Source of the DNA: an uncultured Chloroflexia bacterium
GTDB lineage: Bacteria > Chloroflexota > Limnocylindria > Limnocylindrales > CSP1-4
Length of the DNA: 64,000 nt
NCBI GenBank assembly: GCA_963719285.1
Contig: CAVRBO010000004.1
Location: 324,898-388,897, forward strand
Direction: 5' to 3'
Shown: one piece after another, positions 5,924-53,905 of the stretch
Position numbering within the stretch: position 1 is the first letter of the stretch
Layout of the letters: each line of letters starts with the position of its first letter
Position numbers and translations under genes: made by a program
Notes under the pieces: generated by a model
Told to the model about the DNA's origin: nothing
Seen by the model: only the letters and a program-made list of their open reading frames with translations
Database searches by the model: none

Positions 5924-7134
5924 CCGACGAGCGGACGATCGCCGACGTCCGGGCCCAGGCGGGTGTCGGCGCCGAGGCGGGCGCCGGCGGCCCGTCGTAC
6001 CGGCTCGCGTCGATCCGGGGCGACGGCGTCGGTCCGGAGGTCGTCGGTCACGCCCGGTCGGTCCTCGAGGCCGCCGCGACGGCATTCGGGTTCCGGCTCG
6101 ACTGGGTCGAGGTCCTCGCCGGCGGCGCCGCGATCGACACCCATGGAGTCGCCATCCGGCCGGCCGACGTGGAGCTGTGCGGCACGGCGGACGCCGTCCT
6201 TTTGGGCGCGGTCGGCGGGCCGCGCTGGGACGACCCGAACGCGAAGGTCCGTCCGGAACAGGCCCTGTTCGCCCTGCGTGGTGGTCTCGGGCTGTACGCG
6301 AACCTGCGGCCGATCACGATCCATCCGGTCCTCATCCCGTCCTCGCCATTGCGGCCGGAGCTGCTCGCCGGGGTCGACCTGCTCATCGTCCGCGAACTGA
6401 CCGGCGGCATCTACTTCGGGCGACCCTCGGAGGAGCGAGAGACGCCGGCGGGGCGCGTCGCCGTCGACACGCTCTGGTACACCGACGCGGAGATCGCCCG
6501 GATCGTCCGCCTCGCCTTCACGCTCGCCCGGACCCGGCGGGGCCGGGTCACCCAGGTCGACAAGGCCAACGTGCTGGCCTCCAGCCGGCTGTGGCGCAAG
6601 GTCACCGAAGAGGTCCGGACGGAGTTCCCGGACGTGGAGCTCGAGCACCGACTCGTGGACTCGGCGGCGATGCTCCTCGTCACCCGGCCGTCCGCCTTCG
6701 ACGTCGTCGTCACCGAGAACCTGTTCGGCGACATCCTGTCGGACGAGGCGGCCGTCCTGGCGGGCTCGCTGGGGATGCTCCCCTCGGCCTCGCTGGGGGA
6801 GCGCCGGACCGCCCACGGCACGTTCGGCCTGTACGAGCCCATCCACGGCTCCGCGCCGGACATCGCCGGGCAGGACCGGGCGAACCCGATCGGGACGGTC
6901 CTGTCGGCGGCGATGCTGTGCCGCTGGTCGCTCGGCCGGGCCGATGTGGCCGAGGCGATCGAGGCCGCCGTCAGCGGTGCCCTGACCGACGGATTCCGCA
7001 CGCAAGACCTCACCGCCCCGGCCGGCCACGCGCACGTGACCGTGGGCGGGGGCCGGGAGATGGCCCAGGCAGTGGTGGACAGGATCGCGATTCCACGGGC
7101 GGCGCCGGCGACGGCAGCCGCCCGGACCGCGTGA
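5920..7134 (+). CDS. leuB: 3-isopropylmalate dehydrogenase
   Basis: SIRGDGVGPEVV..., NLRP..., ELTGGIYFG..., NLFGDILSDEAA..., EPIHGSAPDIAG are isocitrate/isopropylmalate dehydrogenase family motifs. GTG at 5920 overlaps the leuA stop. Confidence 0.85.
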   Translation: MTDERTIADVRAQAGVGAEAGAGGPSYRLASIRGDGVGPEVVGHARSVLEAAATAFGFRLDWVEVLAGGAAIDTHGVAIRPADVELCGTADAVLLGAVGGPRWDDPNAKVRPEQALFALRGGLGLYANLRPITIHPVLIPSSPLRPELLAGVDLLIVRELTGGIYFGRPSEERETPAGRVAVDTLWYTDAEIARIVRLAFTLARTRRGRVTQVDKANVLASSRLWRKVTEEVRTEFPDVELEHRLVDSAAMLLVTRPSAFDVVVTENLFGDILSDEAAVLAGSLGMLPSASLGERRTAHGTFGLYEPIHGSAPDIAGQDRANPIGTVLSAAMLCRWSLGRADVAEAIEAAVSGALTDGFRTQDLTAPAGHAHVTVGGGREMAQAVVDRIAIPRAAPATAAARTA

Positions 7135-7168
7135 CCCCCCGCACCCGATCGTCCACCAGGAGCCTTCC

Positions 7169-8866
7169 GTGACCCGCCAGACCGCCGCCCAGCCGACATC
7201 GTCCCCATCCGCCGCCCCGCCCGACCGCCCGGTCGTCCTGTACGACACGACCCTGCGCGACGGGACCCAGGGCGAGAACATCATCCTGTCGCTCGCCGAC
7301 AAGCTCCGGATCGCCCGGATGCTCGACGAGTTCGGGATGCCCTACATCGAGGGCGGCTGGCCGGGCTCGAACCCCAAGGACGTCGACTTCTTCGCCGCCG
7401 CCAAGACCATGACCTGGCGGACCGCCCGGCTGGCGGCCTTCGGCTCGACCCGCCACCGCGCGAACCGGCCAGAGGCGGACCCGAACCTGCAGGCACTCGT
7501 CGCCGCCGAGACGCCGGTCGTGACGATCTTCGGCAAGAGCTGGCTCCTCCATGTCGTGGAGGTCCTGGGTGCGAGCCCGGCCGAGAACCTCGACATGGTC
7601 GCCGACTCCGTGGGCTTCGTGGTCGACCGGGGACGCGAGGCCGTCTACGACGCGGAGCACTATTTCGACGGCTACAAGGCCGACCGCGACTACGCGCTCG
7701 CCACGCTCGGTGCCGCGCGCCAGGCCGGCGCCCGCTCGATCGTGCTGTGCGACACGAACGGCGGGACGCTCACCGACGACCTCATCGCGATCGTGCGCGA
7801 CACGATGGCCGCGCTTGATGGGGACCCGTCCGCACCTTCGGTCGCCTGGGGCATCCACACCCACAACGACGCCGAGCTGGCCGTCGCCAACTCCATGGCC
7901 GCCGTGGCCAGCGGCGTGCGCCACGTCCAGGCGACGATCAACGGGTACGGCGAGCGCTGCGGCAACGCGAACATGGTCAGCATCCTGGCCAATCTCGCGC
8001 TCAAGACCCCCCACGTGCTCGTACCGACCGGCGGCGGGGACCTGGCCGATCTCACGACCCTCGCCCGGAGCGTGGCCGAGATCGCCAACATCACCCCGAA
8101 CGACTTCCAGCCGTACGTCGGCCGCTCCGCGTTCGCCCACAAGGGCGGCGTCCACGGCGCGGCGGTGGCCAAGGTGGAGCGGAGCTACCAGCACGTCGAC
8201 CCGGCGAGCGTGGGCAACGAGGGCCGGCTCGTCGTGTCGGAGCTCGGCGGCCGGGCCAACACCCAGCTTCGTGCGGAGCAGCTCGGTCACAAGCTGGAGG
8301 GCGTGGTGGATGCGCGGGCCCTCTCGGTCATCATCAAGCAGCTCGAATCGGATGGCCTCGCGTTCGAGGGCGCCGAAGCCTCGTTCGAGCTCCTCATCCG
8401 GCGCAACCAGCCGGGCTATGTCGCCCCGTTCCGGATCGTCGACTTCACCGTCCTGGTGGAGCAGCGGGACGGCCAGGAGCTGCGGGCCGAGGCGACCGTG
8501 AAGGTCGCCGTGGACGGCGAGACGCTGCACACCGCGGCGGACGGCAACGGGCCCGTGAACGCGCTGGACACCGCGTTGCGCAAGGCGCTCGGTGCCTTCT
8601 ATCCGGTCCTCGACGACGTCCATCTCGTCGACTACAAGGTCCGTATCCTCGACGGCGAGGCGGCCACGGGCGCCCGTACCCGGGTCGTCATCGATTCGCG
8701 CGACGGCGACCGGTCGTGGTCGACGATGGGCAGCGACACGAACATCATCACCGCTTCCTGCGTCGCCCTCGGCGACTCGCTCGAGTACGCGATCTGGAAG
8801 TCCGACGCCCTGCTCCAACGGCGCGATGAGCGCCACTTCACCACCGCATCGAATACCGGGAGATAG
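7169..8866 (+). CDS. cimA: (R)-citramalate synthase (LeuA/HCS family, CimA clade), threonine-independent 2-oxobutanoate route
   Basis: LYDTTLRDGTQGE...IEGGWPGSNPKDVDFF is the CimA-type signature (cf. Geobacter/Leptospira CimA). C-terminal LeuA_dimer domain present. Confidence 0.75.
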   Translation: MTRQTAAQPTSSPSAAPPDRPVVLYDTTLRDGTQGENIILSLADKLRIARMLDEFGMPYIEGGWPGSNPKDVDFFAAAKTMTWRTARLAAFGSTRHRANRPEADPNLQALVAAETPVVTIFGKSWLLHVVEVLGASPAENLDMVADSVGFVVDRGREAVYDAEHYFDGYKADRDYALATLGAARQAGARSIVLCDTNGGTLTDDLIAIVRDTMAALDGDPSAPSVAWGIHTHNDAELAVANSMAAVASGVRHVQATINGYGERCGNANMVSILANLALKTPHVLVPTGGGDLADLTTLARSVAEIANITPNDFQPYVGRSAFAHKGGVHGAAVAKVERSYQHVDPASVGNEGRLVVSELGGRANTQLRAEQLGHKLEGVVDARALSVIIKQLESDGLAFEGAEASFELLIRRNQPGYVAPFRIVDFTVLVEQRDGQELRAEATVKVAVDGETLHTAADGNGPVNALDTALRKALGAFYPVLDDVHLVDYKVRILDGEAATGARTRVVIDSRDGDRSWSTMGSDTNIITASCVALGDSLEYAIWKSDALLQRRDERHFTTASNTGR

Positions 8867-8868
8867 CC

Positions 8869-9414
8869 GTGAGCCCCACCGCCGACCCGCCGCCCGCCGA
8901 CAGGGCCGCACCCACGCTCCATCTCAGCCGCTGGACGATCTCATCGGGCAGCAACACCCGCAGCCGCGGGGCGGTCGTCCTGGTCGCCGGCGATCACGCC
9001 TGGGACGCCGTCGCCGAGGGCAACGGGCCGGTCGACGCGCTCTACCGGGCGGTCGACTCGGCACTCTCGGGCGTCCTCGCCGGGCACCCGCGGCTGGTCG
9101 CCTACGACATCCACGCCGTGTCCGAGGGCCCGGAGTCGGAAGGCGTCGTGACCGTCACGATCGAGCCGCCCGCCGGCGCGATGGGGCCACGCGCGAGCGG
9201 CCGCTACGGGGGCAAGGCCACGAGCACGAACATCATCGCCGCGTCGATCGAGGCCTACCTCGAGGCGGTCAACGCGCTGCTCGCCGAGGAGCACTGGTCG
9301 GGCGCGACCGAGGAGGCCGGCAATCGCCGGCGGGCCAAGGGCGCCACCCAACGGCGAGCGGAGATGGACGAGGACGAGGGCCACCACGACACGACCGCCT
9401 GGTTCGAGCGCTGA
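8869..9414 (+). CDS. stand-alone LeuA allosteric/dimerisation (LeuA_dimer-like) domain protein with acidic His-rich tail
   Basis: GDHAWDAVAEGNGPVDALYRAVD...STNIIAASIEAYLEAVNALL matches the C-terminal regulatory domain of LeuA/CimA. There is no catalytic TIM-barrel. GTG start 3 nt after the cimA stop. Confidence 0.6.
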   Translation: MSPTADPPPADRAAPTLHLSRWTISSGSNTRSRGAVVLVAGDHAWDAVAEGNGPVDALYRAVDSALSGVLAGHPRLVAYDIHAVSEGPESEGVVTVTIEPPAGAMGPRASGRYGGKATSTNIIAASIEAYLEAVNALLAEEHWSGATEEAGNRRRAKGATQRRAEMDEDEGHHDTTAWFER

Positions 9415-40306: not shown

Positions 40307-41657
40307 GGGCGACGGCCTGTCGTCCGGCGAGCGCCTGCTCCGGAACGGCGGCGCGCCCCCGGATCAGGGGGAACCGGGCGACCGCGAAGGCCGAGCACAG
40401 CCAGAATTCCACGTTCGAGGCCAAGCTGCCGCTGAACAACGTGAACAGCCCGGTCGCGACGACGAGCGCCATGAGGATCGGCGAGCCGGCCGCCCCGCGG
40501 ACCGCGAAGGCCACCCACGGCACCACGAGGAGGATCCCGAGGACGCCCAGCTCGGCCGCGATCTCGAACACGAGGTTGTGGGGATACGTGTCGAAACCGG
40601 TCGCCGCGAAGCCGCCGAGCCCGACACCCAGGAACGGGTGGCTCCAGAACAGGCGCCCGGATTCGCCGATGTACGACGCCCTCGACGTGACGTCCGGCTC
40701 GGCCAGGAAGCTCGTCAGGATCGACGAGACCCGGTCGAAGAACCCGAGGCCGGCCACGATGCCGAGGGCCGTGGTGATCCCGATCCCGGCCCAGGCGAGC
40801 TGGATCCGCCGGTCGTGCCGATCGAACGTCCGGAGCTTCTCCGCGCCGCCTGCGCACATCCCGAGCACGAACCCGATCGCCGGACCACGCGACACGGGGA
40901 GGATGCCGGCGTACACGACGAGCGGGACGAGGAGCAGCTTCCAGCCGCGCGGGATCGGGGCGAACAGGATGACGATCGCGCCGATGAACAGGGCGCGTGA
41001 CTCCCAGATGGGATTCGCCCCGAACAGCGAGATCCGGCCCGGGTACGTGGGCGAGTCGGTCCCGAACGCCAGCATCGCCATGGCGGTCAGGACCCCGGCG
41101 ACGACGACCGGCCGCCAGTCGATGGACGACGTGGCCGGGGCGAGCACGAGGATGAACGCGGCGGGGATGAGACCCGCGAGGATCCAGACGCTGAGCTTGT
41201 CCGAGCCGAAGGCCGCGTCCGGCGACCAAGACAGCGACGCGGCCGCGAACGCGAGCAGCAGGAGCAGCGGCGCGAGCAGGGCGAGCCGCGGCCTGGCCTC
41301 GCGATGGAGCGCGAACGCCGCCACCGTGAACGGCAGGAACCCGCCCACGATCGCGGCGACGACCGACACGCCGATCTTGAACGAGAGGAGCAGGGTCCCG
41401 ATGGGCCCCACGAGGAAGATCGCTGCGACGAGCACCCACGAGGCGTTGAGGATCAATCCGAACCGGCTCATCGCGAGGGCGACCACGATGACGATCGCGA
41501 TCCCGAGCAGCATGAGCTGGAGCGAGAAGGACGGCAGCGCGGCGACGAGCACCCCGATCCCCCCGGTCGTGAGCAGGAGGGCGAGCGCCAGGCGGCTCAG
41601 CCCGATCGAGGGTCGCCCGAACGACGGCCGGCGGACCGTCGCCCTAACCGTGGACAA
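40299..41657 (-). CDS. O-antigen ligase / Wzy_C family polytopic membrane protein (polymerase, ligase or O-oligosaccharyltransferase)
   Basis: About 10-12 TM segments with a large extracytoplasmic loop. The Wzy_C-like region ...WSHPFLGVGLGGFAATG...YPHNLVFEIAAELGVLG is typical of WaaL/Wzy/PglL-type proteins. Confidence 0.7.
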   Translation of the reverse strand: MSTVRATVRRPSFGRPSIGLSRLALALLLTTGGIGVLVAALPSFSLQLMLLGIAIVIVVALAMSRFGLILNASWVLVAAIFLVGPIGTLLLSFKIGVSVVAAIVGGFLPFTVAAFALHREARPRLALLAPLLLLLAFAAASLSWSPDAAFGSDKLSVWILAGLIPAAFILVLAPATSSIDWRPVVVAGVLTAMAMLAFGTDSPTYPGRISLFGANPIWESRALFIGAIVILFAPIPRGWKLLLVPLVVYAGILPVSRGPAIGFVLGMCAGGAEKLRTFDRHDRRIQLAWAGIGITTALGIVAGLGFFDRVSSILTSFLAEPDVTSRASYIGESGRLFWSHPFLGVGLGGFAATGFDTYPHNLVFEIAAELGVLGILLVVPWVAFAVRGAAGSPILMALVVATGLFTLFSGSLASNVEFWLCSAFAVARFPLIRGRAAVPEQALAGRQAVAHG

Positions 41658-42720
41658 GCTCGTCGAACAGCGCCAGGCGCTGCGCCTCCTTGACCGCGAC
41701 GTCGATGTGGGCGACGTCCGGACGCGGGACCCGGACGCCGCGCGAGCGGGTCACGAAGTCGTCGATGGCGTCCAGGGCGTCGATCACGTTGGTCTCCGTG
41801 TTGTCGATCCGCAGGGTGTATCGGCCGAGCGCGTCGGCATCGGGATCCGCGTACCCGTACAGGATGGGCAATCCTACCGCTAGATACTCGCGCACCTTGA
41901 GCGGGCACGCCTCGGTCATCGACTTGCGATGGAGGGCCAGGGTGCCGACTCCGATATCGGCCGTCGCGAGGACCTCGACCACCTGGGCCCGATCCAGCGG
42001 ACCGTGCCATGCGACGTTGGCCGGCGCCGGACCGCCGATCAGCGCCGTGTCCGCGTCGAGGCCCATGATGTCGAACCGCCAGGCGGGCCGCCGCGCGGCC
42101 AGCTCCACGAGCTTGTCGACGCCGTGCCATGGCTGGTCCGCCGTCCCGACGAAGGCGAGCCTCGGCGCCGGTCCCTCGACGGCGGGAGGGCTCGGGTAGG
42201 CCGACAGCTCGATCCCGTTCGTGACCACGCGATGGACGGCCCTGAACCCGGCGAAGCTCGGCTTCGCGCTCAGCTCCGAGGTGACGAAGACGAACCCCCG
42301 GGCCCGTCCGAGGAGCAGCCCTCGGGTGAGCCGGTTGTAGGTCGAACGGACGCGTGAGCCGAGCGCCGACTCGGCCTCGTCGTCAGTGTTCAGTTCGACG
42401 ACCAGCGGCACGCGCCGCGGGAACCGCAGCATCGGCGGGTAGAAGAGGTCCCAGCGCAGGTACACGAGGCTCGGGCGGAAGGCCCGCACGCTCTCGACCA
42501 GCCTGGCCATGGCCTTGATCCGCGAGAACGGGCTGTCGTAGCGGCGGACGACGACTTTCGTGCCGAGCCGCTCGGACCACGGGTCGTCGCGATCGCGCGT
42601 CGCGATGTACAGCCGGACCTCGTGGCCGGCGGCGGTCCACCGGTCGACCTGGCCGGCGACCTTGTGGAGCACGCCGGACCGGCGGGCGGCGTTGACGTGG
42701 GCGAAGTAGGCGATGCGCAT
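41644..42720 (-). CDS. glycosyltransferase (GT-B, GT4-like)
   Basis: C-terminal ...EACPLKVREYLAVGLPILYGY... motif. First gene of a run of overlapping minus-strand genes (GT, Wzy_C, GT4, CE4-like). Confidence 0.7.
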   Translation of the reverse strand: MRIAYFAHVNAARRSGVLHKVAGQVDRWTAAGHEVRLYIATRDRDDPWSERLGTKVVVRRYDSPFSRIKAMARLVESVRAFRPSLVYLRWDLFYPPMLRFPRRVPLVVELNTDDEAESALGSRVRSTYNRLTRGLLLGRARGFVFVTSELSAKPSFAGFRAVHRVVTNGIELSAYPSPPAVEGPAPRLAFVGTADQPWHGVDKLVELAARRPAWRFDIMGLDADTALIGGPAPANVAWHGPLDRAQVVEVLATADIGVGTLALHRKSMTEACPLKVREYLAVGLPILYGYADPDADALGRYTLRIDNTETNVIDALDAIDDFVTRSRGVRVPRPDVAHIDVAVKEAQRLALFDELVHG

Positions 42721-42810
42721 GGCGAGCCCGAACCTTACCCGACGGGTGCCCCCGGACGTGCCCGGTGGGCCGCACGACCGGTGCGCCGGTTCACCGGAAG
42801 TAGAACCGAT

Positions 42811-44065
42811 TCACCGGAAGTAGAACTGGAGGTCGGTCGGACTCTTGTCGAACAGGTCGGTCCAGCGCGAGCCGTCCGGCGAGCCCTGGGCGGTGCCCTC
42901 GCGGAAGGCGAACGACTCCAGCCCCACGTCCGTGCCCTCGCGGATCGGCGCCGCCGTGTAGGTGCTCGATGGCGCGGTCGTGAGCACCAGGTCGTAGGTC
43001 GTTCCGGCCGCCAGGGTCATGGTTGGGAACGTCACCGACGCCCAGACCGAGCCACCGTTGTCGCCACCGGCGGCCGAGGCCGGGATTTCGGTGGCGGCGA
43101 CCTCGCCCGACGCGAGGACCGTGTCGCCCTGGCGGATCGAGATGACGAGAGGGTCGGAGCCGGAGGAGCGCCGGACCCGGACCGCGGCCGAGCTCACGAT
43201 CCGGCCGTTGCCCACGACCGTGAAGTGCTCGCGCACGGACGCGGCGCCCGAGACGGTCCCGAAGTACTCGGTCATGTTCTGGACGTAGGCCACACCGTCG
43301 TGGCCGCCGTCGGCATAGGTGATGTCCATGTCGGCGGTGAAGTTGTCCTGGACCTGCCAATGGCCCGGGGTCGCATACAGGACCGCGTAGTCCGCGTCCG
43401 CCAGCCCGGGCTGGCGGGGCACCAGGGTGGGGCCGTAGACGAACAGTTCGTTCACGCTGATGTAGTTCGCCTCGGGATCGGCGTCGGTGTTCTCGAAGAC
43501 CACGTAGTAGAGCTTGCCCTTGGTCACAGGGACCGGCGCGGGCAGTTGCAGGACGTCGAACTTCGCCCACGCCTGGGAGGGGTTGCCCGGCGTGTAGTCC
43601 ACCGAGCCGAGGACGGTTCCGGACGGCACGCCGTCGGCGTCGGCCTGGATCGTGATCCTGATCGTCCCGCCCGTGCCGCCGGAGTAGACCGAGCCGCCCC
43701 GCTGGGCGAACCGGACGCTCAGGATCATCGAGCTCGTGCTCGCCCGGAAGCGGTGGGCGAGCCGCGCCCCGTCCGTCCAGCCGACCTGAAGGTTCGCCTT
43801 GGTGTCCACGTTCAGGGCGGTGCCGTAGATGCCCTTGACGGCTGGTCCGGGCGTCGCGGTGGGCGTGGGTGCCGGCAGGCTCAGGTGAGGCCGGCTCGCG
43901 ACGTAGTACACCCCGATCCCGCCGCCGACGACGACGACGGTCGCGAGGGCGGCCAGCGCCAGCCAGAGGCGCAGTCTGCGGGCCCTGCCGGGCGGTCCAA
44001 TGGGTGATGCTTCCAGGATATGTCCTGCCAGTCCGAGGTCGGCCCGGCGCGCGGATGCGCGTCAC
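42811..44065 (-). CDS. paralog A of the secreted-protein array (shortest member: RR signal anchor + PT linker + conserved ~340 aa C-terminal domain). N-terminus is ambiguous, with a possible 1-nt frameshift near 43985-44000
   Basis: Conserved domain GIYGTALNVDTKANLQVGWTD...DLQFYFR from the GTG at 43911. The same frame continues upstream as ...RARRLRLWLALAALATVVVVGGG (signal anchor) but with no ATG/GTG/TTG. An ATG at 44065 lies in the +1 frame (MTRIRAPGRPRTGRTYPGSITHWTAR...). So a frameshift or a non-canonical start is needed. Confidence 0.5.
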
Positions 44066-44173
44066 GGCCGGCCGCTGGTTCCGCGTCGCGCAGGCTGCGC
44101 GACGGACGGCTCGGTCAAGAGGATAGCGTGGCGACGCCGCGAACCCGCGGACGCCCGTCGCGGTCCGGGCATG

Positions 44174-44205
44174 GAACGAGGCCGGGCGTCGGCCCGGCCT
44201 CGTTC
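44174..44205 (-). terminator. perfect 14-bp stem hairpin (gaacgaggccgggc-gtcg-gcccggcctcgttc) 20 nt downstream of paralog B
   Basis: Seen in sequence. No U-tract, so it may also be a protein-binding palindrome. Confidence 0.35.
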
Positions 44206-44225
44206 GTTCCGCGCTGCGCGGGCGG

Positions 44226-46226
44226 CTACTTCAGGTAGAACTGCAGGTCGAGCTGCGCCCACTGGTAGAGGGCCGCCCAGGACGAACCGTTGGTCGTCCG
44301 CTGGGCCTGTCCATCGCCGAAGACGAACGACCGGAAGCCGACGTCCGTGCCCTCCCGGATGGGAGTCGCCGTGTACGTCGTCCCACTCGCCGTCGAGAGT
44401 CGGATGCTGTAGGTGGAACCCTTGGCCAGGGTATGGGTCTTGCCGAAGGATGCCCTGACCCAGACCTGGCCGCCGTTGTCGCCGCCGGGGGAGGTGGCCG
44501 GCACCGAGCTCGCCGGGATGCTCACCGAGTCGATGAGCGCCCCGGAACTGGACTCGAGCCGGATGATGAGCGGGCTCGAACCGCTCGACCGGCGCATCCG
44601 GACCGCGACGCTCGAGATCTTGCGACTGCTGCCGCTGACCTTGAACCGCTCCCGGACCATGTGGGTCGAGCCGGAGATGGTGCCGTAGTAGTCGATCTGG
44701 GCGGCCACGTAGCCGTCGCCATCGTGGACCCCGTTGGAGTACCCGACGTCCATGTCGGCGGTGTACTTGCCCATGACCGCCCACGACCCGCCTCCGTTGG
44801 CGAGCACGGCGTAGTTCGTGTCGGTCCAGCGAGGCTGGCGCGGCGAGAGCACGCTGCCGTAGACGAACGTCTCGTTGACCGAGATGAAGTTCGACCGGGG
44901 CGACGAGCTGGTGTTCTGGAACACGATGTAGTAGAGGTGCCCGGCCGTGAGCCTGGCCGGCTTCGAGAACGTGACCCGGTCGAAGGTGTTGATCCCGGAA
45001 CTGCCCGGGGTGTACGACGCCGACGTCAGGATCGTGCCTGACGGCCGCCCGTGGCCGTCGTCCGGCCTGACGCTGATGCGCATCGTGCCGCCGTTGCCGC
45101 CCGAGTAGCCGGCTCCACGTCGCTGTGCGAAGCGGACGCTCACGACATTGGACGTGGTGCTCGCCCGGAACCGGTGCGCGACCATGTTGTTGGCCGAGCT
45201 CGTGTCCGTGCCACCGACCTGGATCTGCGCCTTCGTGTCGGCGTTGATCCCGGTCCCGTAGAGGCCGGACGTACCGCCACTGGCGGCGACCGGCGGCGCG
45301 GCTGGCGGCGGTGGCGTGGCCACCGGGATCCCGAGCCGGACCTCGGCGGTCGACGTGCTCGTCGGATGGCCCGCGATGGAACGATAGAAACCGGAGCTGG
45401 ACGACTTCGTATCGGTCCGGCCGACCCAGCTGTGACCGCGGGTCGAGCTGAACGTCTTCACGTGGTCGTAGTTGCCCGAGGCGTTCCGCCACATCCGGTC
45501 GACTGACATGTTCTTCGTGAACACGCCCCGGATGTACGTGAGCGGGTAGTGGAACTGGTCCGCGATCACGGCTCCCGCGCCCGCGTAGAGGAACCCCGCG
45601 GCGTAGTTCGAGATCCGCTTCCGGGCGACCGTGAGTGACGGAGCCGACTGGCCCGGCTCACTCCCGCCCGAGGCGTACGCGGCCCGGGACAGGACGACCA
45701 CGGCGTGGGCGGACAGGTTGACTGTCCGGATGTACTTCTCGCCGTAGAACTTGATGGCCGTGCTGCCATGATTCTCGCGTGGATTGAGCCCGAGACCGTC
45801 CTCGCTCACCTGGTTGAGCTTGGAGCTGTAAGGGGACGGGAATCCGCGACCGCGGCCGATGTACACGACCAGCGATGCGCCTTCCATGGCGGCCTTGACC
45901 TTGGTCCAAGTGGCCCGCGGCGAGAAGACCGTGACGACATTCGATGTGTAGCGCCGGGCCTCGGTCGCGGCGGCGCGACCCCAGCTCAGGTTGGTCGAGG
46001 TCTGGGTACCGGCGGGGCCGACGATGATCGCGACTTTCGGCGCGACGGCGGCGGCGGCGGGGGCCGCGACCGCGAATTGGAGGCCCATCAGCGCGAGCGT
46101 GATGATCGCGCCGGCGATGAGCGGCCGGACGGGACGACGGGACGCCCTCTGGGCGCCGTTGGCGGTGGACCGCAATAGATTCTCCTCTCCACCAGAACAC
46201 CGCACGGCATGCGGCGACGGAGTCAT
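44226..46226 (-). CDS. paralog B of the secreted-protein array (RR signal anchor, unique ~330 aa N-terminal module, PPPP linker, conserved C-terminal domain)
   Basis: Start taken at MTPSPHAVRC (46226; CAT verified on the plus strand), giving ...RASRRPVRPLIAGAIITLALMGL signal anchor. C-terminus ...TSGLYGTGINADTKAQIQVGGTD...QLDLQFYLK is homologous to A, C and D. Confidence 0.7.
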   Translation of the reverse strand: MTPSPHAVRCSGGEENLLRSTANGAQRASRRPVRPLIAGAIITLALMGLQFAVAAPAAAAVAPKVAIIVGPAGTQTSTNLSWGRAAATEARRYTSNVVTVFSPRATWTKVKAAMEGASLVVYIGRGRGFPSPYSSKLNQVSEDGLGLNPRENHGSTAIKFYGEKYIRTVNLSAHAVVVLSRAAYASGGSEPGQSAPSLTVARKRISNYAAGFLYAGAGAVIADQFHYPLTYIRGVFTKNMSVDRMWRNASGNYDHVKTFSSTRGHSWVGRTDTKSSSSGFYRSIAGHPTSTSTAEVRLGIPVATPPPPAAPPVAASGGTSGLYGTGINADTKAQIQVGGTDTSSANNMVAHRFRASTTSNVVSVRFAQRRGAGYSGGNGGTMRISVRPDDGHGRPSGTILTSASYTPGSSGINTFDRVTFSKPARLTAGHLYYIVFQNTSSSPRSNFISVNETFVYGSVLSPRQPRWTDTNYAVLANGGGSWAVMGKYTADMDVGYSNGVHDGDGYVAAQIDYYGTISGSTHMVRERFKVSGSSRKISSVAVRMRRSSGSSPLIIRLESSSGALIDSVSIPASSVPATSPGGDNGGQVWVRASFGKTHTLAKGSTYSIRLSTASGTTYTATPIREGTDVGFRSFVFGDGQAQRTTNGSSWAALYQWAQLDLQFYLK

Positions 46227-46495
46227 GGGCCGCGCCAGCGACAAGATGGACGCAGGTAGGCGTAAGGCGGTGAGGTGCGATCGCACCCGACCACCTGCGG
46301 CGGCGCGGCATGTCTGCGGACGGACCTGCACACGGGGACGCCAGGCCGACCGTTGGACGCGATCCGGACTGAGCTGGCCACGTCGGTGAGCGACTGGCCC
46401 GTTCCCGGGATGTCCCGGCTCCCGGAGGATCACGGTGCCCTAGAGCAACGTCGGGATTATGGCGCATCCCGCCGGATCGCGTCGCGCCCCGGCGA

Positions 46496-48511
46496 TCAGC
46501 GGAAGTAGAACTGGATATCCACCGGGCTGTACTGGTAGAGGTCCGCCCAGGTCGTGCCATTGCCGGAGCTCTGGCCGGAGCCGTCCCGGAAGGCCGTGGA
46601 CATGAGGCCCACGTCGGTGCCTTCGCGGATCGGCGCGGCCGTGTACTCCGTCCCGGACGGCGTGGTGAGGCGGAGGTTGTACGACGTTCCGTTGACCAGC
46701 GTGTGCGCCGAGCCGAAGGTCACTCCGACCCACACCGAACCGCCGTTGTCGCCGCCCGCCGCGCTCGCCGGGACGGAGCTGGCGGCGACATTGGCCGAAT
46801 CGATGAGCGTGCCGGAGCCTGTCTCCAGGCGGATCGTGAGCGGGCTCGAGCCGCTCGTCCGGCGGACCCGGACGAAGGCCTTGCTGATCGTGCGGTCGCC
46901 GCCCGAGACCGTGAAGTGCTCGCGGACGGACGCCGAGCCCGAGATCGTCCCGTAGAGTTCGACGATGTTCGCGATGTAGGCCATCCCGTCGTGGACGCCG
47001 TTCGAGTAGGCGAGGTCCATGTCCGCGGTGTACCTGCCCTCGACCGACCAGCTCGACGGGGCGGCGGTCAGGACGGCGTAGTCGGCGTCGGCGAACGCCG
47101 GCTGGCGGGGGGTCAGGGTGGAGCCGTAGACGAAGAGCTCATTGACGCTGAAGTAGTTCCCGACGGGATTCGCGTCGATGTTCTCGAACACGATGTAGTA
47201 GCGCGAGCCCTTCGTGAGCGTGGCCGGCGACGGGAAGGTCACCGCGTCGTACGTGGTCCAGGCGCCGGACGGGTTGCCCGGCGAGTACGTGGCCGCGGCG
47301 AGCACGGTGCCGGACGGAACGCCGCTGGCGTCGGTCTGGACGGTGATCCGGTATGTCCCGCCGTTACCTCCGGAATAGATCGGCCCGCCGCGTTGCTGGA
47401 AGCGCACGCTCTTGAGCGCGGAGGTCGTGCTCGCGACGAACCGGTGGGCGACCTTCGCCCGATCCGTCCAGCCGACCTGCAGGTTGGCCTTGGTGTCGAA
47501 GTTGAACGCGGCCCCGTAGATCCCGCCGGACCCGGGCTGGGGTGTGGTCGTGGGATCCGGGGTCTGGGTCGCGCCCGGCGTCGCCGTCGGCTTCGCGGTG
47601 GGATCCGGCGTGGCGGTCGGGTCCGTGGTCGCGGTCGGATCGGGCGTCCCGGTCGGATCGGGGCTTGCCGTCGCGGTGGGATCCGGCGTCGCGGTCGGGT
47701 CCGCGCCGCTGGGCATGGTCGTGAACGTGAAGTCGGTCGAGACCGACAATCGGCCACCGGCGTCCTGCGAACGGACCCGGTAGTGATACTGCGTGCCGGG
47801 CGCGAGGCCCGAGACCTTCTGAGCGTGGGCGGTGTACTGGAGCGACTTCTCCGGCGCGGTCTCCTGGCCGTAGGCCGTCGTCGTGCCGTAGTCGACCTGC
47901 CCGGTGGCGGGTTCGTCCAGTCGCCAGGTGACGAGTGCCGCCGTGTCACTGACGCTCGTCGCCTTCACCAGGCTGATCGATGGAGGCGTCGTCCTTCCCG
48001 GGTTCTTGCGCGTGACCCGGACATTCACGGTCGTGACCGCGGGTGTGTGCGGGAGCGCCGAACGGGCGAGCGTGCCGGCGACGACCCTGACGGCCGAGGT
48101 GCGATCGACCCGCGAGAAGGTCGCGCTGTGGACCCCGCTCGTGGCCGTGCCGGGGATCCGCAGATGGCCGTGGAACGTGCCCTTGACGCTCGGCCAGACG
48201 AGCCGGATCGCCCTCGGGACCGAATCCCAGTGGACCTGGTAGACCGCATGGGCCTTGAAGCCGCGCCCGTCGATGATGACCGTCTGGCCGGGGGCACCCG
48301 ACCCGGTCACGGAGACCGTGGGCCCGCTCGCGGCGTTGTCGATGTCATCGGGCGCCGGTGATGCGCTCCAGGCGAGGGCCGGGACGAAGAGCAGGAGGCC
48401 GATCGCGACGGTGAGGATGGGCAGTCGGCGCTTCGAGCTCGATCGTCTGGCCGGGGTCGACGGCGCGACGGCCGGGTCGGTGACCCAGGCGGTTCCATTC
48501 CAGAACGTCAT
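46496..48511 (-). CDS. paralog C of the secreted-protein array (N-term MTFWNGTAWVTD tail, RR signal anchor, Ig/Fn3-like modules, Pro/Thr/Asp linker, conserved C-terminal domain)
   Basis: Fn3-like segment ...LVTWRLDEPATGQVDYGTTTAYGQ...SGLAPGTQYHYRVRSQDAGG..., linker TATPDPTATASPDPTGTPDPTATTDPTATPDPT, then GIYGAAFNFDTKANLQVGWTD...VDIQFYFR. Confidence 0.75.
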   Translation of the reverse strand: MTFWNGTAWVTDPAVAPSTPARRSSSKRRLPILTVAIGLLLFVPALAWSASPAPDDIDNAASGPTVSVTGSGAPGQTVIIDGRGFKAHAVYQVHWDSVPRAIRLVWPSVKGTFHGHLRIPGTATSGVHSATFSRVDRTSAVRVVAGTLARSALPHTPAVTTVNVRVTRKNPGRTTPPSISLVKATSVSDTAALVTWRLDEPATGQVDYGTTTAYGQETAPEKSLQYTAHAQKVSGLAPGTQYHYRVRSQDAGGRLSVSTDFTFTTMPSGADPTATPDPTATASPDPTGTPDPTATTDPTATPDPTAKPTATPGATQTPDPTTTPQPGSGGIYGAAFNFDTKANLQVGWTDRAKVAHRFVASTTSALKSVRFQQRGGPIYSGGNGGTYRITVQTDASGVPSGTVLAAATYSPGNPSGAWTTYDAVTFPSPATLTKGSRYYIVFENIDANPVGNYFSVNELFVYGSTLTPRQPAFADADYAVLTAAPSSWSVEGRYTADMDLAYSNGVHDGMAYIANIVELYGTISGSASVREHFTVSGGDRTISKAFVRVRRTSGSSPLTIRLETGSGTLIDSANVAASSVPASAAGGDNGGSVWVGVTFGSAHTLVNGTSYNLRLTTPSGTEYTAAPIREGTDVGLMSTAFRDGSGQSSGNGTTWADLYQYSPVDIQFYFR
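47530..47705. repeat. degenerate tandem repeats encoding the (D/T)PTAT(P/A) linker in paralog C
   Basis: Repeated ggtgggatccggcg / gtcgcggtcgg(g/a)tc units seen in sequence. Confidence 0.4.
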
Positions 48512-48517
48512 GCGATC

Positions 48518-48605
48518 GTGTCTCCGTTCGGCAGCCCGGCTGACTCAGGGAGTTCCGTGGCTTTGCGACCCCGTCTCGCGGCGGGTGTGCTATTTCGTGG
48601 GACAT
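48518..48605 (-). ncRNA. candidate c-di-GMP-I (GEMM) riboswitch in the 5' leader of paralog C
   Basis: Minus-strand RNA: CACGAAAUAGCACACCCGCC-GCGA-GACGGGGUCGCAAAGCCACGGAACUCCCUGAGUCAGCCGGGCUGCCGAACGG, followed by GAGACACGAUCGC-AUG. Matches remembered GEMM-I hallmarks: GCA(A/c)ACC before a GNRA-capped P1 hairpin, then GGG(A/u)CGCAAAGCCACGG, then AGCCGGG..CCGAA. A near-identical copy lies upstream of paralog D. Confidence 0.45.
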
Positions 48606-48783
48606 CGGATCGAGGACCATCCGGTCCGACAGGCCAACTCGCAGGATGGCCAACCACCATCCGCTCGGGTATGGGGTGATGGTCCCGGCGGCCGTGGGAC
48701 GAAGCGGGGCCCGGACCGACCCTGAGCGCACCGGTGTGGCACGCACGGCACAGCCCGCCTCATCCGGGCGCGCCGGGAATCGG

Positions 48784-48811
48784 ACCGCGGGACCCGTCGA
48801 TGGGTCCCGCG
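48784..48811 (-). terminator. hairpin ccgcgggaccc-gtcgat-gggtcccgcgg ~45 nt downstream of the paralog D stop
   Basis: 11-bp perfect stem seen in sequence, followed on the minus strand by the U-containing stretch UCCGAUUCC. Likely separates the D and C transcripts. Confidence 0.35.
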
Positions 48812-48853
48812 GAAGGAAGGTTTCGATCGCCGCCGGGCAGCGGCGTCCGGTGA

Positions 48854-50959
48854 TCAGCGGAAGTAGAACTGGATGTCGACCGGGCTGTAGGCGTACAGGT
48901 CCGCCCAGCTCGTCCCGTTGCTCGAGCTCTGGCCCGAGCCGTCGCGGAAGGCGGGGGAGAGGAGACCCACGTCGGTCCCTTCGCGGATCGGCGCGGAGGT
49001 GTACGTGGTGCCCGACGCCGTCGCCAGGCGCAGGTTGTAGGCCGTCCCGTTGGCGAGAGTGTGCGGGCTGCTGAAGGTCACCGTGACCCAGACCGACCCG
49101 CCGTTGTCGCCGCCCGGCGCGCTTGCGGCGATGGAGCTCGCCGGGACGTCGACCGCCTCGATGAGCGTGCCCGCGCCGGTCTCGAGCCGGATGGTCAGCG
49201 GGCTGGAGCCGCTCGTCCGGCGCACCCGGACCGATGCCTTGGTGACGGTGCGGTTTTCGCCGCTGACCGTGAAATGCTCACGGACCGACGCGCTGCCCGA
49301 GACCGTCCCGTACAGCTCGATGATGTTGGCGATGTAGGCCATCCCGTCATGGGTCCCATCCGCGTAGGTGAGATCCATGTCGGCGGTGTACTTGCTCTGG
49401 ACGGACCAGGTCGAGGGAGCCGCATAGAGGACCGCGTAGTCCGCGTCGGCGAAGGCCGGCTGACGGGGGGTCACGGCGCTGTAGGTGTACAGCTCGTTGA
49501 CGCTGAAGTAGTTGGCGGCCGAGTTCGCGTCGACGTTTTCGAACACGATGTTGTAGCGGATGCCCTTGGTCAGAGTGGCGGGGCTGCTGAACGTGACCAG
49601 GTCGTAGTGGGTCCACACGCCCGAGTTGCCCGGCGTGTAGCTGGCCGTCGCGAGGATCGTCCCGGAAGGCACGCCGTTCGAGTCGGTCTGGACGGTGATC
49701 CTGAGGGTGCCGCCGGTGCCGCCGGAGTAGATGGGCCCGCCGCGCTGCTGGAAGCGGATGCTCTTGAGGGCCGAGGTCGTCGTGGCCACGAACCGGTGGG
49801 CGACCTTCGCGTGATCGGTCCAACCGACCTGCAGGTTGGCCTTGGTATCGAAGTTGAACGCGGCTCCGTACGTCCCGGTCTGGCCGGGAGCCGGGGTCGC
49901 GGTCGGGGCGACGGTCGGAGTCGCCGTCGGGGCGACGGTCGGAGTCGCGGTCGGGGCGACGGTCGGAGTCGCCGTCGGGGCGACGGTCGGTGTCGCCGTC
50001 GGGGCGACGGTCGGTGTCGCCGTCGGCGTCGCGGTCGGGGCGCTCGTCGGTGTCGCCGTCGGGGTCGCGGTCGGAGCGACGGTCGGAGCGACCGTCGGGG
50101 TCGGGCTCGCCGCTCCGCCGATCGTCTTGAACGTGTCGTCGGACGAGACCGACAGGCGGCCGGCGGCATCCTGCGATCGGACCCGGAAGTGATAGACGGT
50201 CCCGGCGAGGAGGCCGCTCACCTGCTGGACGTGAGCGGAGTAGCGGAAGGATGTCTCGGCGGTCGTCAGGCGACCGTAGGCGGTCGTGGTGCCGAATTCG
50301 ACCTGGCCGGTGGCCGGCTCATCCAGGCTCCAGGACACGATCGCGCCGCTCGAACCGATGCTCGTCGCCGTCACGGCGCTGATGCGCGGTCCCGTCGCCG
50401 TCGTCGGGGCCGGGGTCGGGGTCGGCGTGGCGGTCCCGTTGGCGACCACGAACGTCGCGCTCGTGGTGGCGCGGCCGGCGGCAGTGACCGCGGTGACCGA
50501 GATCGTGTGCGAACCATTCGCCACCGTGGAGGTGTTCCAGGCGTTCGCGGTCTCGTTGTCGGCGGTCCCACGGAGGTCCCATGGAGCCGCCGCTTCGACG
50601 CGCATCGGCGTCGTGGTCATCGCGACGTCATCGAGCCAGAAGGTGACGCTGCTGGCGACGGTCTTGGTGGCCAGGAAGACGTAGCGATTGCCGGCGAGCG
50701 TGGCACCGTTGAGGGCGAACGGCTTGCTGCGGGTCCGGGCGGCAGAGGCGTCCAGCATGAAGCCGGTATTGGGCGTGGCGGCCGTGGACGAACGGTGGGC
50801 GGCTGCGACGGGCAGCTGGGGGAGGGCGACGGCGGCGGCGACGGCGAGGGTCACCACGGCCAGGAAGGGCACGCGGGCGAGGCGATGGAGACGCCGGGCG
50901 GGGACATGAGCGGGAGTGGTCGTTTCAGTGACCCAGGAGGTCCCATTCCAGGACGACAT
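48854..50959 (-). CDS. paralog D of the secreted-protein array (N-term MSSWNGTSWVTE tail, RR signal anchor, beta-sandwich module, Fn3-like module, long PT linker, conserved C-terminal domain)
   Basis: ...SWSLDEPATGQVEFGTTTAYGR...SGLLAGTVYHFRVRSQDAAG..., (ATPTVAPT)n linker, then GTYGAAFNFDTKANLQVGWTD...VDIQFYFR. RBS GGAG 10 nt upstream. Confidence 0.75.
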   Translation of the reverse strand: MSSWNGTSWVTETTTPAHVPARRLHRLARVPFLAVVTLAVAAAVALPQLPVAAAHRSSTAATPNTGFMLDASAARTRSKPFALNGATLAGNRYVFLATKTVASSVTFWLDDVAMTTTPMRVEAAAPWDLRGTADNETANAWNTSTVANGSHTISVTAVTAAGRATTSATFVVANGTATPTPTPAPTTATGPRISAVTATSIGSSGAIVSWSLDEPATGQVEFGTTTAYGRLTTAETSFRYSAHVQQVSGLLAGTVYHFRVRSQDAAGRLSVSSDDTFKTIGGAASPTPTVAPTVAPTATPTATPTSAPTATPTATPTVAPTATPTVAPTATPTVAPTATPTVAPTATPTVAPTATPAPGQTGTYGAAFNFDTKANLQVGWTDHAKVAHRFVATTTSALKSIRFQQRGGPIYSGGTGGTLRITVQTDSNGVPSGTILATASYTPGNSGVWTHYDLVTFSSPATLTKGIRYNIVFENVDANSAANYFSVNELYTYSAVTPRQPAFADADYAVLYAAPSTWSVQSKYTADMDLTYADGTHDGMAYIANIIELYGTVSGSASVREHFTVSGENRTVTKASVRVRRTSGSSPLTIRLETGAGTLIEAVDVPASSIAASAPGGDNGGSVWVTVTFSSPHTLANGTAYNLRLATASGTTYTSAPIREGTDVGLLSPAFRDGSGQSSSNGTSWADLYAYSPVDIQFYFR
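49893..50112. repeat. 24-bp tandem repeat (~9 copies, cgtcggggcgacggtcgg(a/t)gtcgc) encoding (TPTVAPTA)n in paralog D
   Basis: Near-perfect tandem copies seen in sequence. They are in-frame and length-variable in principle. Confidence 0.65.
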
Positions 50960-50967
50960 GCGATCTT

Positions 50968-51052
50968 GGCTCCATTCGATGACCCGGCTGACTCAGTGAG
51001 TCCCGTGGCTTTGCGGCCCCGTCTCGCGGCGGGTGTGCCATTTCGTGGTCCC
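50968..51052 (-). ncRNA. second candidate c-di-GMP-I (GEMM) riboswitch, in the 5' leader of paralog D
   Basis: Minus-strand RNA: CACGAAAUGGCACACCCGCC-GCGA-GACGGGGCCGCAAAGCCACGGGACUCACUGAGUCAGCCGGGUCAUCGAAUGG, followed by AGCCAAGAUCGC-AUG. The aptamer core is ~90% identical to the paralog C copy. Differences are concentrated in the 3' segment adjoining the RBS. Confidence 0.45.
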
Positions 51053-51769
51053 GAGATCGGCGCGTCGCCGGTGCCAGGCTCGACGCTCGCGGGGGACGAT
51101 CTGACCGCCGCCCGCCGTTTCGGCGGACCGGTGGCGACCGGACCCGTGTCCGTGAGTCATCGCTACCTGAACCATGGCTCGCGGCGGCGCGGCAGGGCAT
51201 CGAACGGAGGTCGCCGCGCGGGCGGCCCGTGGTCCACGAAGCGCCTAAGCCAAACAGACGACACGCGTCGTCAGCCGTGGTCGGCGGAGGTGGTGGCGGA
51301 GTATTCGGCGACTGGTCCGGCCGGTGCCGAGACGACCGTCTTCCGGAACCCGGACCGGCGGGACGCATCGGCGGTGTCGCCCGGGGCGGCCCGTCCGCGG
51401 TCAACCTAGCAACGCCGACTTACCATCCGCTTACCTGAGCCGATGACGCTTCCGGCGCCCGATCCGCCGATGGGGTCCACCATGGAGCGGTCGTTCCACC
51501 AAGCGGGAAGCATCGCCACGGTCGACATCCGATCGCCACCGAGCGACGGATCCAGCCATACCCGCTCGGTGCAAGCGCGCACCGTCGAGCGCTCCTGGGA
51601 CTAGCCACGGTGGTACTTCCGGGCTATCGTTGGAACCCCCGGTGAGGTTGGTTCAGCGGGGGCATTCATCAGGGCCATGGCGCCGTACCAGAAACGCCGC
51701 GGCTCACACAACGAACGGCGTCTTTCTCTTTTCATCCTGCGCGCCGTCCGTGCTCAATCGGGGGAAACC

Positions 51770-53905
<2,136 letters not shown>

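Follow-up and report, generated by a model that had tools for sequence, protein, structure and literature searches.

Two bases of the class I cyclic di-GMP aptamer (GEMM-I, Rfam family RF01051) touch the guanines of the ligand: in the numbering of the Vc2 aptamer of Vibrio cholerae, G20 reads G-alpha and C92 pairs with G-beta (PMC6140456; the roles of C92 and C93 are also described in PMC3764141). Natural riboswitches for 3',3'-cGAMP (GEMM-Ib) have A at position 20, and several of them are bispecific; the natural A20 aptamer Cbe 1-2 binds c-di-GMP (30 nM) more tightly than cGAMP (463 nM), and a G20A substitution yields a Vc2 aptamer that binds c-di-GMP at 53 nM and 3',3'-cGAMP at 120 nM (PMC6140456). 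The opposite change, A20G, turns a Geobacter cGAMP riboswitch to c-di-GMP selectivity, and the genome of G. sulfurreducens possesses 17 GEMM-I elements, some of them in tandem (PMC6456294). When G20A is combined with C92U, the Kd of Vc2 for c-di-GMP moves from 0.011 to 4900 nM (PMC9049102).

Two aptamers of this class precede adjacent paralogous genes, here called C and D, in the 64,000-nucleotide stretch of uncultured Chloroflexia DNA that was analysed (the window). The riboswitch class is known and was correctly detected, and what is new is the lineage and the associated genes. To judge from sequence, the D leader is very probably a functional class I c-di-GMP riboswitch that, together with its counterpart at the C paralog, controls translation initiation of two surface proteins. 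The two leaders differ, among other places, at the two positions, 20 and 92, that read the ligand.

Two aptamers in an exopolysaccharide locus

Genes C and D lie within a ~30-kb exopolysaccharide or cell-surface glycan cluster (window about 22000-54000), and exopolysaccharide genes are a typical target category of cyclic dinucleotides. The cluster includes genes for a beta-helix protein, a DegT aminotransferase, a Bac_transf sugar transferase, a FemAB-like protein, an ATP-grasp protein, a methyltransferase and Wzz/BY-kinase, for an asparagine synthase, an epimerase, a flippase, a DUF7033 protein, GT1, Wzy and GT4, and for the four paralogs A-D and a Polysacc_synt_2 dehydratase. As to lineage, the closest named relatives of the 2-isopropylmalate/citramalate synthase encoded in the window are Chloroflexota and Candidatus Limnocylindrales MAGs, with 92-95% identity. 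The ORF of this synthase (HMGL-like plus LeuA_dimer; window 7040-9414) is followed by an overlapping ORF, 8830-9414, that matches LeuA_dimer only and could represent a domain duplication or a frameshift.

Gene D (48854..50959, minus strand) is an intact ORF of 701 aa, and gene C (46496..48511, minus strand) encodes a 671-aa paralog that aligns with it at 58% identity overall and about 80% in the C-terminal domain. According to domain and structure prediction, both proteins consist of a short N-terminal WNGxxW peptide, a TM anchor, an FN3/Pur_ac_phosph_N-like domain, a PT-rich linker and a C-terminal region of ~340 aa that is common to C, D and the paralogs B and A, and for which an AlphaFold (AF2) model predicts tandem beta-sandwiches (pLDDT 79). 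Foldseek searches with this model returned weak matches only, to phage receptor-binding proteins, lectins and CBMs (TM 0.2-0.34), and a sequence search of the domain against the PDB gave no match; no specific function is therefore assigned. True homologs of the surface proteins are rare, numbering about 25 in 5.8 billion sequences, and the four genome matches to the family are uncultured Chloroflexia MAGs. The PT-rich linker of protein D is encoded by a tandemly repeated, GC-rich unit of ~24 nt (PTATPTVAPTATPTVA...; window about 49880-50110), and linker length varies among paralogs and orthologs. The riboswitch-linked ORFs (50930-50959 and 48482-48511, minus strand, in the window, and those of the related loci L001-L003, L010, L011, L015, L017 and L020-L026) start with M..W[DN]G..W, and a basic stretch and a TM helix come next. 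A weak similarity links this motif to the C-terminal half of Pfam DUF2510, at sub-threshold E values of 0.14-0.24.

An earlier note on this DNA had described a riboswitch-like leader at gene D, and the description proved sound, in that the leader has a conserved fold and scores well above the threshold of a curated family. The D leader (51049..50975, minus strand) matches RF01051 with 52.6 bits against a gathering score of 35 (E 2e-07 for the 64-kb window), and the C leader (48601..48527, minus strand) matches it with 53.4 bits against the same score (E 1.3e-07 for the window), each spanning the full length of the model, positions 1-87. These are exactly the two matches above gathering score in an Rfam 15 scan of the whole window. 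A clade-specific covariance model, R1, gives 99.4 bits for the D aptamer (50972..51048, minus strand, from P1 5' strand to P1 3' strand, as delimited by RF01051, R1 and covariation) and 99.5 bits for the paralogous C aptamer (48524..48600, minus strand, by RF01051 and R1). Paralogs A and B were likewise rightly said to lack the element: a permissive Rfam rescan of 41500..52000 (E<=5) found no extra copy upstream of either, and R1 found no other convincing copy in the whole window. One candidate, a tandem second aptamer upstream of D (R1 match at 51186..51116, minus strand, 15.2 bits, E 0.18), is without the junction core and was rejected as probably a chance match rather than a degenerate copy.

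Each aptamer lies in the 5' leader of its gene and on the same strand. Both copies possess the hairpin CCCGCC-GCGA-GACGGG, with a GNRA tetraloop and a C.A mismatch, which had been labelled P1 and is in fact the P2 of the class. Although the GCGA tetraloop is present on P2, 16-18 consensus positions of P3 are deleted and there is no tetraloop receptor motif, such that the copies do not have the type 1 architecture; the tetraloop-receptor architecture is not universal in the class, and the P3 of family RF03167 is similarly short. Its score, fold, junction nucleotides and position all place the D leader genuinely within RF01051.

The comparative evidence comes from 26 related loci that were gathered and searched with Rfam and R1. 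The window and 13 of the 26 loci gave convincing matches, 18 in number and comprising 14 distinct sequences, from Chloroflexota (Limnocylindria-like) MAGs and metagenomes; Rfam matches above gathering score were likewise obtained for orthologous leaders of other genomes. In a MAFFT alignment of the 14 sequences, 94.4% of P1/P2/P3 cells are paired, and at 6 pairs both partners change. The observed covariation values were reached by none of 500 shuffles, and slid controls were 21-45% paired. The two-sided changes are A-U to U-A and G-C to A-U in P1, three pairs in P2, and A-U to G-C in P3, where the L010 leader also has an extra inserted U-A pair. The C44/G83 tertiary pair and the GNRA loop are kept in all leaders, and likewise the A47-A49 junction, except at position 48 of the D-type leader of L001. 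The P1/P2/P3 three-way junction is maintained by compensatory changes across related genomes. The exceptional leader (L001 2068) reads GCAGAGCC where all others read GCAAAGCC, which places a G at Vc2 position 48, in the ligand-binding junction.

The C and D leaders are identical at 66 of 75 positions (88%) over the Rfam-defined aptamer, against the ~90% first estimated, and at 81 of 93 when the comparison runs from the start of the aptamer to the ATG; by a manual count on the alignment, the first 66 aptamer bases differ at 5. The strings CCCGCCGCGAGACGGG and GCAAAGCCACGG are common to both leaders (minus strand), GGGCTGCCGAACGGAGAC is confined to the C leader and GGGTCATCGAATGGAGCC to the D leader, and every string that the earlier note had quoted lies on the minus strand in its proper place. 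The same note had judged that the C/D differences look compensatory or specific to the expression platform. Compensation finds no support, as the differences that fall within helices all change one partner only: D has G-C where C has A.C at pair 60-72, G.U for G-C at pair 52-81, A.C for A-U at pair 51-82 and A-U for A.C at P1 pair 15-89. The note had also pointed to divergence in the 3' segment beside the ribosome-binding site; this divergence is real, but its assignment to the expression platform only does not stand, since the divergent segment includes ligand-pairing position 92.

The identity of the two leaders begins abruptly at CCACG, in the P1 5' strand, and runs into approximately the first 18 codons. 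The 100 nt farther upstream agree at 66 of 100 positions in a gap-permissive global alignment, a likeness that we read as background for DNA of 71% GC, and the less conserved part of the CDS agrees at 354 of 540. That the duplication took in the regulatory RNA, as first proposed, agrees well with the related loci, where the element travels with the 5' end of the gene: all 18 convincing matches are directly upstream of an ORF starting M..W[DN]G..W, with G98 located 11-23 nt before the AUG, and paralogs with a different N-terminus carry no aptamer (among them L002 gene 1, L021 gene 1 and L019). In L002 gene 1 and L021 gene 1, a signal peptide stands in place of the riboswitch-linked N-terminus. 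The extracellular N-terminal domain of D is orthologous to L002 gene 1 (47% identity), and L003 gene 1 has a G20 leader on a C-like body. Together with the sharp C/D identity boundaries, these mosaic relationships suggest that a module consisting of aptamer, Shine-Dalgarno sequence and WNGxxW/TM N-terminus may have moved between paralogs by partial duplication or gene conversion.

Positions 20 and 92 and the choice of ligand

Vc2 numbering was mapped onto the leaders by means of the C22-G45 pair of P2, G14-C93 at the P1 apex, the bulged A95 and C92 in J3-1 (PMC3764141). By this mapping, position 20 falls on the base directly 5' of the G21-C22 pair, and a conserved CCGAA opens with position 92. 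In the cmscan alignment, position 20 of the D leader (51039, minus strand) is G, the base that reads G-alpha of c-di-GMP (PMC6140456), and position 92 (50979, minus strand) is U. Both the class consensus and each of the 13 related leaders carry C at this place, which forms a Watson-Crick pair with G-beta (PMC3764141, PMC6140456). In the C leader, position 20 (48591, minus strand) is A, known from the literature as the signature of GEMM-Ib, cGAMP or bispecific, and C92 is kept (48531, minus strand). Position 20 is the sole 5' difference between C and D, and the 3' differences include position 92.

A20 is found in 11 of the 14 leaders, the most divergent ones included, and on this distribution is taken as the ancestral and dominant state in the clade. 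The remaining three leaders, those of window D, L001 gene 1 and L003 gene 1, have G20, and in each of these loci (window, L001 and L003) the G20 leader is on the first gene of a pair and an A20 leader on the next. The sequence signature of GEMM-Ib, A20 with C92 kept, is thus present in the C leader and in 11 of 14 clade members, and is absent from D by virtue of its G20. A47 is present throughout. U92 occurs in the window D leader alone among the 14, the G20 leaders of L001 and L003 having C92; as a single base in sequence from a MAG, it may stem from misassembly or be a polymorphism that is mildly deleterious.

Because the C and D leaders differ at these ligand-contact bases, the different switching thresholds that the earlier note had envisaged for them are plausible, and a different ligand preference, which it had not raised, is equally allowed by the sequence. 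The D-type aptamer, with G20, would be tuned to c-di-GMP, and in this genome would be weakened by C92U, which leaves at best a wobble in place of the Watson-Crick pair between G-beta and C92. The C-type aptamer, with A20, would bind 3',3'-cGAMP, c-di-GMP or both. The adjacent paralogs would then answer either to different thresholds or to different messengers.

The strongest alternative to a difference in messenger is that both leaders sense c-di-GMP only, A20 in C and U92 in D doing nothing more than lowering affinity, such that the two genes switch at different c-di-GMP concentrations and cGAMP plays no role; we find this nearly as easy to believe as to doubt. The binding data agree with it, in that Vc2 with G20A still binds c-di-GMP at 53 nM and the natural A20 aptamer Cbe 1-2 favours c-di-GMP (30 nM) over cGAMP (463 nM), and c-di-GMP is the usual messenger for matrix and surface genes. 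Furthermore, no GGDEF, CD-NTase or other cyclase gene, and hence no cGAMP synthase, was seen among the scanned window ORFs, and we know of no cGAMP synthase for this Chloroflexota lineage. However, A20 is the ancestral and dominant state, and two diverged lineages (window/L001 and L003) have each kept a G20 copy beside an A20 copy, as is expected if the two states are functionally distinct. The recurrence of G20/A20 neighbours in window/L001 and L003 may, for its part, go back to one inherited mutation alone. A bolder proposal, in our view rather unlikely, is that 3',3'-cGAMP serves Limnocylindria-type Chloroflexota as a second messenger, read by an ancestral A20 (GEMM-Ib-like) translational riboswitch on the surface-protein family, to which a derived G20 neighbour would add c-di-GMP input, two paralogs of one polysaccharide locus thereby reading two dinucleotides. 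The G20/U92 combination of this genome could, in addition, read cGAMP in a flipped orientation.

Expression platform and direction of switching

The Shine-Dalgarno sequence of gene D, GGAG (50970..50973, minus strand), is built into the aptamer, its first two G (50973 and 50972) forming the last two pairs of P1, and the start codon (50957..50959, minus strand) follows 14 nt after G98. The GGAG of gene C (48522..48525, minus strand) likewise overlaps the P1 3' strand, and both aptamers stand 15 nt upstream of their ORFs. This arrangement is general, as the Shine-Dalgarno sequence (GGAG, GGGA or GGGG) begins with G98 and G99 in all 14 leaders, with a C-G98 pair in 14 of 14 and a C-G99 pair in 13, the other leader having U-G99. 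In the L020 leader (420-455), GGAGACACG is tandemly duplicated (GGAGACACGGGAGACACGATCGTATG), with the result that there are two Shine-Dalgarno copies and the distance from G98 to the AUG grows from 14 to 23 nt. The 11-23 nt between the aptamer 3' end and the AUG are too few to accommodate a terminator, and control must therefore fall at translation initiation or at events coupled to initiation. Since the first two G of the Shine-Dalgarno sequence are within the P1 3' strand and the AUG is 14 nt on, translational control is the likely mechanism.

On the other side of the aptamer, the 5' flank continues P1 with a CC(U)CC-like or longer complementary sequence. In D, RNAfold MFE and duplex energies predict that the flank (51049..51069, minus strand) extends P1 by pairing with the SD-AUG region (50952..50974), in a helix that spans the Shine-Dalgarno sequence and continues across the AUG (-21.8 kcal/mol, z -3.9 versus shuffles). 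The equivalent duplex of a C ortholog is predicted at -18.5 kcal/mol (z -3.4); in other leaders the extended helix is weak, and significant in some only. The extended helix would exist, and matter, only if transcription starts upstream of the 5' flank. A promoter scan of 48400..51700 found no sigma-70-like site.

Two further hairpins were noted around the leaders. A perfect 11-bp inverted repeat (ccgcgggaccc / gggtcccgcgg; window 48785-48812) with a 6-nt loop, terminator-like and with no U tract, is located 41-68 nt downstream of the gene D stop and about 185 nt upstream of the C aptamer; this suggests that D and C are separate transcription units. A terminator-like hairpin at 51257-51272 (minus strand), GACGACGCGTGTCGTC then TGTTTGGCTT, is found about 200 nt upstream of the D aptamer, in a 717-nt divergent intergenic region with no upstream minus-strand gene nearby.

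The leader architecture fits best, and we think probably, with an OFF switch, the ribosome-binding site being masked when ligand stabilises P1. In this model, a cyclic dinucleotide would bind at the junction and stabilise P1; in D and most C-type leaders, the ligand would also stabilise the longer P1 extension formed with the 5' flank; and the stabilised P1 would cover the ribosome-binding site, resulting in less translation. Folding predictions were made in two series. In the first, enforcing the aptamer left accessibility of the Shine-Dalgarno sequence lower or unchanged in 10 of 10 leaders, and in the second, which used two alternative 5' ends, this was the case in roughly 10 of 14, one or both 5' boundaries giving higher accessibility with the aptamer in L003_1, L020, L026 and L011. 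Thermodynamic modelling does not settle the choice between ON and OFF, and in D the SD-occluding fold is the MFE structure even in the absence of ligand, which puts the size of any ligand effect in doubt.

An ON switch is possible, if clearly the less favoured direction. Here the Shine-Dalgarno sequence would be trapped in an alternative pairing without ligand, and aptamer folding on ligand binding would free enough of it and of the AUG for initiation, such that the surface proteins are induced along with the polysaccharide. Induction is what one would expect, on biological grounds, of matrix and adhesin genes, and it agrees with the four leaders named above, where modelling gives the Shine-Dalgarno sequence lower accessibility in the free ensemble than under the aptamer constraint. 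Set against it are the two 5' G of the Shine-Dalgarno sequence, which are inside P1 in every leader, and the CC(U)CC-like anti-SD of the 5' flank, which is continuous with P1. Nor does the aptamer hold a conserved alternative anti-SD: the CUCC of the P3 loop was considered for this role and rejected, as it is present in 7 of 14 leaders only.

It is distinctly unlikely, to our minds, that the D copy of this genome is decaying or non-functional. In that event C92U would harm the pocket, U92 would pair with the first A of J1-2, and a long helix would sequester the Shine-Dalgarno sequence and AUG constitutively. Indeed, none of the other 13 leaders has U92, an A:U92 pair lengthens P1 in the RNAfold prediction, and the MFE structure of the D leader occludes the Shine-Dalgarno sequence whether or not the aptamer is constrained; G20A/C92U, moreover, cuts the c-di-GMP affinity of Vc2 more than 10^5-fold (PMC9049102). 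Against this, the remainder of the D aptamer is intact and its R1 score of 99.4 bits is as high as those of its relatives, with C92U by itself a G.U wobble can still form, as can an A-U pair if the ligand contains adenine, and gene D is an intact 701-aa ORF. Finally, the idea that the conserved ~100 nt is merely a duplicated promoter or UTR with no structural function, which the earlier note had reserved for the case that related genomes show no conserved structure, is barely credible: the duplication itself, and nothing more, speaks for it, whereas the leaders match curated covariance models, their secondary structure covaries in relatives with compensatory changes in P1, P2 and P3 across 14 leaders, and the ligand-junction nucleotides are strictly conserved.

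Significance and comparison with known systems

On a safe reading, this locus extends a textbook riboswitch class to an uncultured Chloroflexota lineage, which is useful for annotation and unsurprising, and ties cyclic-dinucleotide signalling to uncharacterised membrane-anchored surface proteins, with a predicted tandem beta-sandwich, in an exopolysaccharide cluster. The sole mildly novel part, as far as the alignments indicate, is the G20/A20 split between adjacent paralogs, which recurs in related genomes. Two 88%-identical aptamers on adjacent paralogs, differing at the ligand-reading bases (G20/U92 versus A20/C92), amount to a natural experiment. They bear on whether duplication led to divergence in signal specificity or in affinity only, and on whether cGAMP signalling exists beyond the currently known lineages.

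Among described systems, the leaders resemble Vc2 of V. cholerae (RF01051) in their three-helix junction, with the G21-C22 and G45-C46 pairs, A47-A49, C44-G83 and a GNRA loop on P2, and in G14-C93 atop P1 followed by bulged AA; the D leader, in addition, shares G20. Unlike Vc2, they have a P3 of 10 bp with a 7-nt loop and no 11-nt tetraloop receptor, a J1-2 that is one nucleotide shorter and, in D, U92 versus C92. They also differ from Vc2 in that the Shine-Dalgarno sequence is built into P1, which leaves an expression platform of just about 15 nt.

The C leader and 10 of its 13 relatives have the A20 and C92 of Geobacter GEMM-Ib (Gs1761, Gmet_0970) and of the bispecific Cbe 1-2 of Clostridium beijerinckii, and the targets, as in Geobacter GEMM-Ib, are extracellular or surface functions. 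The host, however, is a member of the Chloroflexota, not of the Desulfobacterota or Firmicutes, and control, to go by the leader sequences, would be translational here versus by terminator there. In overall sequence, short P3 and annotated P1, the leaders also resemble RF03167, the c-di-GMP-I-GGC variant, and the relatives L015, L017 and L003_1 pass its gathering score. The RF03167 consensus differs, however, in having G after G45-C46 (GCGAA), where the leaders described here have A47 (GCAAA). Membership of the window copies in that family was rejected, given scores of 52.2 and 51.3 bits versus a gathering score of 59 and the A at position 47.

As in the multi-GEMM-I regulons exemplified by G. 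sulfurreducens, several copies of one class are deployed on related extracellular functions within one genome. The arrangement differs from the G. sulfurreducens tandems in that each of two adjacent paralogs carries a single aptamer, with G20 on one and A20 on the other.
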